From assembly GCA_035250975.1 (NCBI GenBank), contig DATFEP010000067.1, forward strand, positions 44,144-108,143: a DNA stretch of 64,000 nucleotides, given 5' to 3'. The notes under the pieces are model-generated. The model saw only the letters and a list, made by a program, of their open reading frames with translations, had not been told where the DNA came from and made no database searches. Below are positions 4,497-15,581 of the stretch, in pieces. Numbering within the stretch: the stretch's first letter is position 1; the number at the start of each line of letters is the position of its first letter. A program made the position numbers and the translations under genes. The DNA comes from Nitrososphaeraceae archaeon (GTDB lineage: Archaea > Thermoproteota > Nitrososphaeria > Nitrososphaerales > Nitrososphaeraceae).

Positions 4497-4880
4497 TTAC
4501 ATAGTGGAGAGTGAATTATGCTGCTGAATAGTTGCGTAATTGGGCTGCTCCGATATCTCTGGGAACAATCCTGCTAATTTATCATGTTTCTCTAGAAAAT
4601 CTGCTCCCATAGACGTCGTCTTGTACAAACCAGTAACTTTGGAATATTCCATTAAACCTTGTTTTACTGCTAATCGCAAATATCGAGTTATTTGAGAATG
4701 AGACACAGACGCCTTATTCATTATAGTTGTTTGATATTCCCATTTATTGGCAGCACAACGAATTATAGATGCAATTATTCCTATATCAGTTCTATTTTTC
4801 AAAGAATCTTTACCTCTTTCTTCATTGTATGAATGCTGAATGATAGAATTCAATTTAGATAATAAAAAAACCTTTGACAA
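4497..4880 (-). CDS. Winged-helix transcription regulator (archaeal HTH_45-like)
   Basis: R..I.IIASI....TTIMNKASVS..QI.RYL....GL......YKTT.MG..FL pattern. Confidence 0.75.
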   Translation of the reverse strand: MSKVFLLSKLNSIIQHSYNEERGKDSLKNRTDIGIIASIIRCAANKWEYQTTIMNKASVSHSQITRYLRLAVKQGLMEYSKVTGLYKTTSMGADFLEKHDKLAGLFPEISEQPNYATIQQHNSLSTM

Positions 4881-4938
4881 TTATTAACGACAAAATTGTT
4901 TGTTAAATTAAAACCGATAAAAAGAAATAATAAAAATT

Positions 4939-5028
4939 AATCAAAACACCTCAGCAACTCATAATCTTCGTCACATACAAATTACAATGTATCGGACGGC
5001 TCTTCCTATACTTCATCGGCATTTGATT
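4939..5028 (-). ncRNA. Box C/D 2'-O-methylation guide sRNA (23S PTC guide plus tRNA-Met anticodon guide)
   Basis: Minus strand: stem AATCAAATGCC / C ATGAAGT (5016-5010) / guide ATAGGAAGAGCCGT / D' CCGA / hairpin / C' GTGACGA / guide AGATTATGAGTTG / D CTGA (4954-4951) / stem GGTGTTTTGATT. Confidence 0.85.
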
Positions 5029-5149
5029 TGTTTATTATCTTTAATTTAAATTGATCATTAATAAAGACTGCTCTTTTGGACAACTACTTTAAATACTGAT
5101 TTTTTTTTATTCCAATCCGACGTGTAGAAATTCGGCAGTTATAGTTGAT

Positions 5150-5400
5150 ATCATCTGTCTATTCTTCTAGTAATATTACTAAACACGTGCTCGTATTATA
5201 TCTTCAGTCTGCCTCTATTGTAAATGAAAGTAAACTCAGATGCAATCCAACGATTTGGTATACGAACTATCCACCTTCTTTATACCTGTTAATCTTCCAT
5301 TTTGGTATCTGGGTTATCAATAACATCAATATCAAGAAATTTCTCCTCTCTTTATAACAGGTTATCTCTATTTCTCCCAGTGAAAGAGATACTAGCATTA
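5150..5400 (-). pseudogene. Possible decayed IS5-like transposase C-terminal remnant
   Basis: Broken minus-strand frames give RRWIVR...W...RLKI and YEHV, reminiscent of the IS5 RW.VER...W signature; several stops and shifts. Confidence 0.3.
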
Positions 5401-15506: not shown

Positions 15507-15581
15507 GCCGGAGTGGCTCAGCTTGGTTAGAGCGTTCGACTCATAATCGAAAGGTCGCGGGCTCGAATCCCGTCTCCGGCA
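15507..15581 (+). tRNA. tRNA-Met(CAT), probably elongator, intronless
   Basis: GCCGGAG/CTCCGGC acceptor; TTCGA-CTCATAA-TCGAA anticodon arm; no A1-U72 or three G-C pairs of an initiator. Confidence 0.92.

Follow-up and report, generated by a model that had tools for sequence, protein, structure and literature searches.

A conserved dual-guide box C/D sRNA gene in an ammonia-oxidising archaeon, with guides complementary to 23S rRNA and to the anticodon arm of tRNA-Met

The locus and the anatomy of the sRNA

The stretch of DNA analysed here, referred to as the window, comprises 64,000 nt of contig DATFEP010000067.1 (positions 44,144 to 108,143 of the forward strand) in assembly GCA_035250975.1 of a Nitrososphaeraceae archaeon. 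The genome (G000; 91 contigs, 94.6% complete) encodes archaeal AmoA and is thus that of an ammonia-oxidising archaeon. A genuine box C/D sRNA that has two guides and is conserved among relatives is encoded at about 5022–4946 on the minus strand of the window. Downstream of its gene comes a small winged-helix gene (4497–4880, minus strand), followed by the genes for diphthamide synthase and SRP54; a divergently transcribed gene for a Zn-dependent dehydrogenase is located on its other side. An earlier note, drawn up from the letters alone, had proposed a box C/D RNA at 4939–5028 of the minus strand and called it unannotated. The sequence reads as described there, with correct coordinates and guide string, and Rfam at curated thresholds returns only three tRNAs in the window. 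The guide string, the 13-mer ATAGGAAGAGCCG, occupies 5009–4997 of the minus strand (its complement being 4997–5009 of the plus strand); next come a U (4996) and CCGA (4995–4992). The individual features, those of the sRNA gene in the order of transcription, are as follows:

5043–5050, minus strand: TATA-like A/T-rich element TTTAAATT, about 21–28 nt upstream of 5022
5023–5028, minus strand: outer 5' part of the 11-bp stem, in the window copy only, paired in the predicted fold
5018–5022, minus strand: conserved terminal stem, 5' strand AUGCC, pairs with 4946–4950
5010–5016, minus strand: C box AUGAAGU, deviating from the consensus RUGAUGA at positions 5 (A) and 7 (U)
4996–5009, minus strand: D' spacer AUAGGAAGAGCCGU, 14 nt, invariant in 18/18 same-genus copies
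5006–4997, minus strand: duplex-forming part of the D' guide, GGAAGAGCCG, positions 2–11 counted from the D' box
4992–4995, minus strand: D' box CCGA, CUGA in most relatives
4975–4991, minus strand: internal loop between D' and C', 17 nt, variable, with length and indels differing among same-genus copies
4968–4974, minus strand: C' box GUGACGA, the majority of same-genus copies having AUGAAGA
4955–4967, minus strand: D spacer and guide AGAUUAUGAGUUG, 13 nt, pairs with the tRNA(CAU) anticodon arm
4951–4954, minus strand: D box CUGA, invariant in 18/18 same-genus copies
4946–4950, minus strand: conserved terminal stem, 3' strand GGUGU, pairs with 5018–5022
4939–4945, minus strand: outer 3' part of the window-specific stem, beginning with a U run, from sequence and predicted fold
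15507–15581, plus strand: tRNA(CAU), Rfam tRNA match of 69.7 bits, tRNA-Met according to ARAGORN

As expected of an archaeal C/D sRNA, the terminal C and D boxes are able to form a k-turn that is closed by the stem, with a single G between the 5' stem strand (5018) and the C box (5016), and internal D' and C' boxes are present as well. Our reading of the C box departs from that of the earlier note, CCGAUGA: the base preceding AUGA varies between G, A and U among the 18 aligned same-genus copies, and the C box is therefore AUGAAGU. This heptamer matches the majority C' box AUGAAGA; the AUGA and the following G of the C box are invariant (18/18), and position 5 varies between A, C and G. With the boxes re-read in this manner, the spacers measure 14 nt (D') and 13 nt (D), which is longer than the 12 nt usual for archaeal C/D guide spacers. 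The window copy and its relatives G019 and G016 carry C at position 2 of the D' box and C at position 5 of the C' box, the other copies having U and A, respectively; these U-to-C and A-to-C changes are linked across the internal k-turn.

A terminal stem of about 11 bp, as put forward in the earlier note, indeed forms in the window copy, the predicted fold containing 11 pairs and one bulge, but it is lineage-specific in that only the inner five pairs are conserved. The latter are standard pairs in every cell (100%) of the 17 distinct same-genus rows compared, and the outer pairs are, by eye, broken in the closest relatives (G019, G016). Changes within the terminal stem are one-sided (C-G to U.G, A-U to G.U), with no double-sided covariation among these rows, and shuffles were uninformative in this respect. 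The predicted fold of the window copy also has a small hairpin in the loop between D' and C'; its folding energy is unremarkable (z = -1.6; 9 of 200 shuffles fold at least as well). The outer stem segment at 5023–5028 may lie upstream of the transcript start. Judged from the usual spacing of archaeal promoters, the element at 5043–5050 is a putative promoter element, in a region that is A/T-rich throughout; a promoter and terminator scan of the bacterial type was uninformative at this locus. RNA-library evidence came from four runs in the form of assembled contigs, which carry neither ends nor levels and for which DNA carry-over is possible: contig X10 covers 4762–5022 and X8 covers 4832–5010, X12 and X13 cover only 4700–4825, and none covers 5036–5300. 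The end of X10 is a weak hint at a transcript boundary near 5022.

Conservation was followed at increasing phylogenetic distance. An exact search with the 13-mer found the sRNA in 17 of 24 same-genus genomes, where all matches are sRNA copies and none falls inside a 23S gene; the matches in G033 and G034 are unrelated DNA and were discarded. When 18 same-genus copies were aligned, both guides together with their spacers proved invariant, with variation in the loop, the flanks and non-critical box positions; the sequence flanking the RNA differs between relatives while the RNA itself is conserved. A covariance-type search of related archaea, which the earlier note had proposed, was carried out with a model (R1) built from these 18 copies and found the RNA in 78 of 151 sampled genomes of the order Nitrososphaerales, among them 22/23 of the window's family (f1), 23/23 of f13, 10/11 of f9 and 0/13 of f7. 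The RNA is conserved across ammonia-oxidising archaea. Three candidates from this search (L117, L151, L159) look, by eye, like false positives. The arrangement GAA[G/A]AG[C/U]C-NN-D' box recurs in 74 of the 80 R1 match rows, and the D' core GAAGAGCCG persists throughout the order as well as in Bathyarchaeia. Outside the order, about 131 more genomes from the phylum were searched, and R1 matched in three of the five genomes of f31, in which the 23S site reads GCUCUUCCUAU; a match in G216 is probably a false positive, again by eye.

We also scanned species-representative prokaryote genomes with a pattern composed of C box, guide and D' box, which returned at least 120 stretches. Among the 80 matches listed, 60 are from Bathyarchaeia, 15 from Nitroso-/Thaumarchaeota, one is from another archaeon and four bear bacterial labels, two of these having the Bathyarchaeia-type sRNA and two being coding DNA; no Asgard or euryarchaeal record is among these 80 listed matches. 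The Bathyarchaeia copies have the D' guide and are devoid of the tRNA-Met guide. The near-verbatim Bathyarchaeia-type sRNAs at L209 and L260 reside on contigs of Acidobacteriota MAGs (Sulfotelmatobacter, Acidoferrum), which suggests mis-binned archaeal contigs.

The D' guide and its site in 23S rRNA

An LSU rRNA gene was not found in the G000 assembly, and its 16S gene is partial only; a genome-wide search of G000 with the 13-mer returned the complement of the guide itself as the sole match. The pairing described below was read against the 23S rRNA of relatives. The earlier note had postulated complementarity over 13 nt, which is not what these genes contain: the relatives' 23S rRNA pairs with the guide over 10 bp, beyond which an A.C mismatch and another two pairs are found. 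All seven same-genus 23S genes with the site read CGGCUCUUCCCAU rather than ending in CCUAU, the wider site being GAUGUCGGCUCUUCCCAUCC in G004, G010, G012, G015, G016, G017 and G019. The note had also stated that absence of its target string from the 23S rRNA would refute the proposal; taken literally, and judged on these 7/7 same-genus genes, the string is absent. What the D' guide does form with 7/7 of them are 10 contiguous Watson–Crick pairs, corresponding to 2577–2586 in the local numbering of the G019 23S gene with N+5 at 2580. Extrapolating from these genes, the putative site in the 23S rRNA of the window organism would read CGGCUCUUCC. In other genera, the guide bases located 5' of GGAAGAG vary, and the extra UAUA complementarity is therefore not a conserved feature.

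The position of the site was not affected by the shortened duplex. As proposed earlier, the target lies just 3' of GAUGU in the large-subunit rRNA, with the C of CGG-C at N+5, and the assignment of N+5 to the equivalent of E. coli C2510 holds despite a helix of 10 bp. The C in question is position 2509 in the annotated 2,903-nt E. coli 23S gene; combined with the landmarks A2503, G2505 and U2506, which we take to apply to the 2,904-nt E. coli numbering, this yields C2510 in the standard 2,904-nt numbering. The target cytidine presumably sits at the base of 23S helix 90, in its 5' strand. It adjoins the peptidyl-transferase ring and is not one of the catalytic nucleotides. The region of helices 90–93 is known as a hotspot for guided methylation in archaea (PMC4644070).

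For both guides, the complementarity attains at least 9–10 bp and includes the fifth pair from the D or D' box (10 bp for D', 12 bp for D). Among LSU rRNA, SSU rRNA and 31 tRNAs, the 23S site is the sole strong one for the D' guide. In a shuffle test, in which single-sequence guide shuffles were compared with rRNA and tRNA totalling 7,028 nt in 2000 trials, the observed pairing of the D' guide was reached in 67/2000, a result that is weak if taken alone.

A co-change of guide and target was found in family f13. Its 23S rRNA reads GCUUUUCC in 21/21 genomes with a 23S match, with U where others have C, the sequence in all other families of the order being GCUCUUCC; correspondingly, the sRNAs of f13 read GGAAAAGCC in 23/23 cases and the rest GGAAGAGCC. 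The 55 pairings of guide and target states, which include the doubtful L117 and count G111 twice because of its two 23S fragments, comprise 32 G:C, 21 A:U, two A:C and no G:U combinations. At the level of the compared sequences, the G-to-A change in the f13 guide and the C-to-U change in its 23S rRNA are a single clade-level compensatory event and not 21 independent ones. Two genomes of family f4, G101 (L158) and G109 (L161), combine an A-type guide with C-type 23S rRNA and count against a perfect rule. The A.C mismatch in this pair of genomes is positioned two pairs from the predicted methylation site, and their D guides are unrelated to tRNA-Met.

The D guide and the anticodon arm of tRNA-Met

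The earlier note missed the predicted tRNA-Met target of the second guide. The D guide forms 12 contiguous pairs (11 Watson–Crick plus one G.U) with C29–C40 in the anticodon arm of tRNA(CAU); the paired stretch extends over 15537–15548, U33 being 15541 and C34 being 15542. The gene for this tRNA belongs to the window too, at a distance of about 10.5 kb from that of the sRNA. In the shuffle test described above, the observed pairing of the D guide was equalled in 11/2000 trials, and the D-guide segment AGAUUAUGAGUU is invariant in 18/18 same-genus copies. Against LSU rRNA, the D guide gave only G.U-rich runs, and against the whole genome with up to two mismatches the number of matches was 563 versus 565 for a reversed-pattern control. 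The tRNA set used for these comparisons consisted of the 31 tRNAs found by the Rfam tRNA search, ARAGORN in intron mode yielding only 19.

The tRNA(CAU) of the window is probably the elongator tRNA-Met: its acceptor stem differs from that of tRNA-Ile(GAU), to which the second CAU tRNA of the genome is similar. In the anticodon arm, by contrast, the window tRNA(CAU) and tRNA-Ile(GAU) are identical except for position 34. The same tRNA-Met arm was encountered in G092 and G166. Covariation between D guide and tRNA was not seen in the genomes compared, G166 having one G.U and G085 one mismatch. In G085 (L170) and G029 (L171), the elongator tRNA-Met harbours, by eye, an intron in the 5' strand of the anticodon stem that is situated within the guide-paired stretch, so that the D guide could bind only the spliced tRNA in these two organisms.

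The register of the D guide differs between genera. Its core ([U/C]UAUGAG; GAUUAUGAG) is kept in 66 of the 95 family rows examined, and in 41 of these 66 rows GAG is separated from the D box by 2 nt, which places the wobble base C34 at N+5. A spacing of 3 nt, with U33 at N+5, occurs in 23 of the 66 (21/21 in the window's genus plus one each from g19 and g18); two are unclear. Under the strict rule, C34 is consequently at N+5 at the level of the sRNA family but not in the window copy, and the one extra nucleotide preceding the D box would shift N+5 from C34 to U33 in the window's genus. To our knowledge, U33 is not an established site of 2'-O-methylation. For C34, the first anticodon base of tRNA-Met, precedents are at hand: PMC7994747 names it as a C/D target in Pyrococcus, and haloarchaeal sR-tMet guides Cm34 of tRNA-Met according to a table in PMC4033218 that cites Joardar et al. 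2011.

At L101 (G040), L153, L154 and L147 (families f15 and f17), GAUCUUGAG takes the place of GAUUAUGAG in the D guide; it would complement a CAA anticodon loop, and the D guide of these copies may, by this complementarity, have switched from tRNA-Met to tRNA-Leu(CAA). In the f15 copies the D' guide is different as well. The f9 copies (L137, L149, L150, L157, L160 and others) have kept the 23S-directed D' guide and share a different but conserved D guide, with ACCAGUUCAAU before CUGA.

Relation to known guide RNAs and the proposed function

In an Rfam scan of 271 nt at a permissive threshold, SNORD49 was the best match (24.8 bits, E = 6e-4), followed by Plasmodium snoR28 and plant snoR77Y, all of which align via the guide plus the D' box and in the same register. 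The gathering threshold of SNORD49 (RF00277), 37 bits, is not reached by these 24.8 bits, and the Bathyarchaeia-type copy attains 20.7. Like the window RNA, SNORD49, snoR28 (RF01604) and snoR77Y (RF01178) have a D' guide of the form AUAGGAAG-N-GCCGU preceding the D' box, and in SNORD49 and the window RNA N+5 falls on the same conserved cytidine. The differences from SNORD49 are that the window RNA possesses functional C'/D' boxes as well as another guide directed at a tRNA, that one guide base is A instead of the U of the SNORD49 consensus, and that the pairing with the rRNA of the window's genus amounts to 10 bp. The earlier proposal that the window RNA addresses the same site as human SNORD49 is borne out by the match in register with the RF00277 consensus, the site assignment being that of a table in PMC9941101, which lists SNORD49A/B for 28S Cm4456 (Cm4426). 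Its further description as the counterpart of a eukaryotic snoRNA-guided site holds in the sense of functional equivalence, but not as a statement on descent: the score rests on the boxes and a target-constrained guide, and other members of the family favour archaeal families, so that homology to SNORD49 is not demonstrated.

One such archaeal family is sR41 of Pyrococcus (RF01126), an anticodon-loop guide for a CAU tRNA, whose consensus D guide ends in UAUGAG-NN-CUGA. With this 2-nt spacing, C34 is at N+5 in sR41 as in most genera of our sRNA family, the window's genus having one nucleotide more; the consensus D' spacer of sR41 is unconserved, whereas D' is the most conserved part of the window's sRNA family. 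For the Nitrosopumilaceae-type copy, sR41 is the best match (31.4 bits, the highest sR41 score of a family member and below the gathering threshold of 54); it was not found among the Rfam matches of the window copy at E values up to 10. Haloferax volcanii sR-tMet is also a C/D guide for tRNA-Met, a likeness that refers to its stated target alone. The dual guides of Pyrobaculum, Sulfolobus and Pyrococcus have the same layout of C box, guide, D' box, loop, C' box, guide and D box with a short terminal stem; the rRNA target of the window RNA lies in the helix 90–93 hotspot. For Pyrobaculum, PMC7994747 describes tRNA-targeting sRNAs as having one tRNA guide and another guide devoid of a target, and rRNA dual guides as addressing sites no more than about 100 nt apart; unlike this description, the window's sRNA family combines one guide for rRNA with one for a tRNA.

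As to the protein partners, the L7Ae family is present in the G000 genome, and searches of the assembly (94.6% complete) detected neither fibrillarin nor a Nop domain (Nop5). Fibrillarin scored above the cut-off in 39 of 40 relatives, including 23 of 24 of the same genus, and the missing pair in G000 is probably a matter of one unassembled locus or assembly gap. The machinery considered below would accordingly be the one indicated by relatives.

Based on the features outlined above, we consider it likely that the RNA encoded at about 5022–4946 (minus strand) acts as a box C/D sRNA with two working guides, one for the C2510 equivalent of 23S rRNA and one for the anticodon arm of tRNA-Met. The sRNA would assemble with L7Ae, Nop5 and fibrillarin; its D' guide would base-pair over 10 bp with that part of the 5' strand of helix 90 which comes immediately 3' of GAUGU in the peptidyl-transferase ring. 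Counted from the D' box, the C2510-equivalent cytidine would then be in the fifth pair and thus be presented for 2'-O-methylation. For its part, the D guide would pair with positions 29–40 of tRNA-Met, the fifth pair being C34 in most genera of the family, and the extra nucleotide in the window's genus would bring U33 to the fifth pair.

The main alternatives to this dual-guide function concern origin, mode of action and the identity of the transcript. The RNA could be a true orthologue of SNORD49/snoR28/snoR77Y that eukaryotes inherited from their archaeal ancestor, instead of an independent guide for the same site, in line with SNORD49 being the best Rfam match (E = 6e-4), with the base-for-base alignment of guide and D' box, and with the D' guide being old in archaea (Nitrososphaerales, Bathyarchaeia). 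We regard this as unlikely, as nearly all of the 24.8 bits (versus 37) are contributed by the boxes and by a guide under constraint from invariant rRNA, the Nitrosopumilaceae-type copy scores higher with archaeal sR41 than with SNORD49, and no Asgard or euryarchaeal record is among the matches listed; guides moreover turn over quickly, according to PMC7994747. A more elaborate scenario would have the D' half as the archaeal SNORD49 orthologue of TACK-type archaea (Nitrososphaeria, Bathyarchaeia), passed on to eukaryotes and, in ammonia oxidisers, fused with a wobble guide for tRNA-Met, with the genus-specific insertion having moved methylation from C34 to U33; this, too, appears improbable to us.

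A role mainly as folding chaperone or occupancy factor on 23S rRNA and/or tRNA-Met, with one or both guides having no part in methylation, would accommodate the longer than usual spacers and the D-guide register that differs between genera, which matters less for a pure binder, and such roles of archaeal C/D guides are discussed in PMC7994747. We nevertheless hold it to be very unlikely, since the D' box and the paired C are separated by a constant distance throughout the order, and likewise in Bathyarchaeia, as ruler-based methylation predicts, and fibrillarin is retained in 39/40 relatives. We judge it highly improbable, finally, that the RNA serves as a leader acting in cis on the winged-helix gene downstream (4497–4880, minus strand), or is a chance look-alike, rather than a trans-acting guide. 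The two do share a strand, with the RNA situated immediately upstream of the gene, and one RNA-library contig spans from 5022 through the sRNA to 4762, but the conservation is order-wide, with invariant guides and flanks that differ between relatives. C/D sRNAs are known to be transcribed together with adjacent genes in some cases (PMC7994747), so that read-through is no argument against a guide.

Searches of openly available full texts did not uncover any account of C/D guide RNAs from ammonia-oxidising archaea; in PMC4836417, a full-text match, the relevant word appears in the reference list only, and in the sections of PMC7994747 and PMC4644070 that were covered neither Thaumarchaeota nor Nitrosopumilus occurs. 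The sRNA family presented here leads to two testable predictions in cultured, ecologically important organisms, namely a ribose methylation beside the peptidyl-transferase ring and another one in the anticodon loop of tRNA-Met. The family displays a clade-wide co-change of guide and rRNA target, and its 2-nt versus 3-nt spacing to the D box represents a natural experiment on how strictly the N+5 ruler is applied. The 23S site would add one more rRNA position guided in both archaea and eukaryotes, which alone is no proof of a shared ancestry of the guides.
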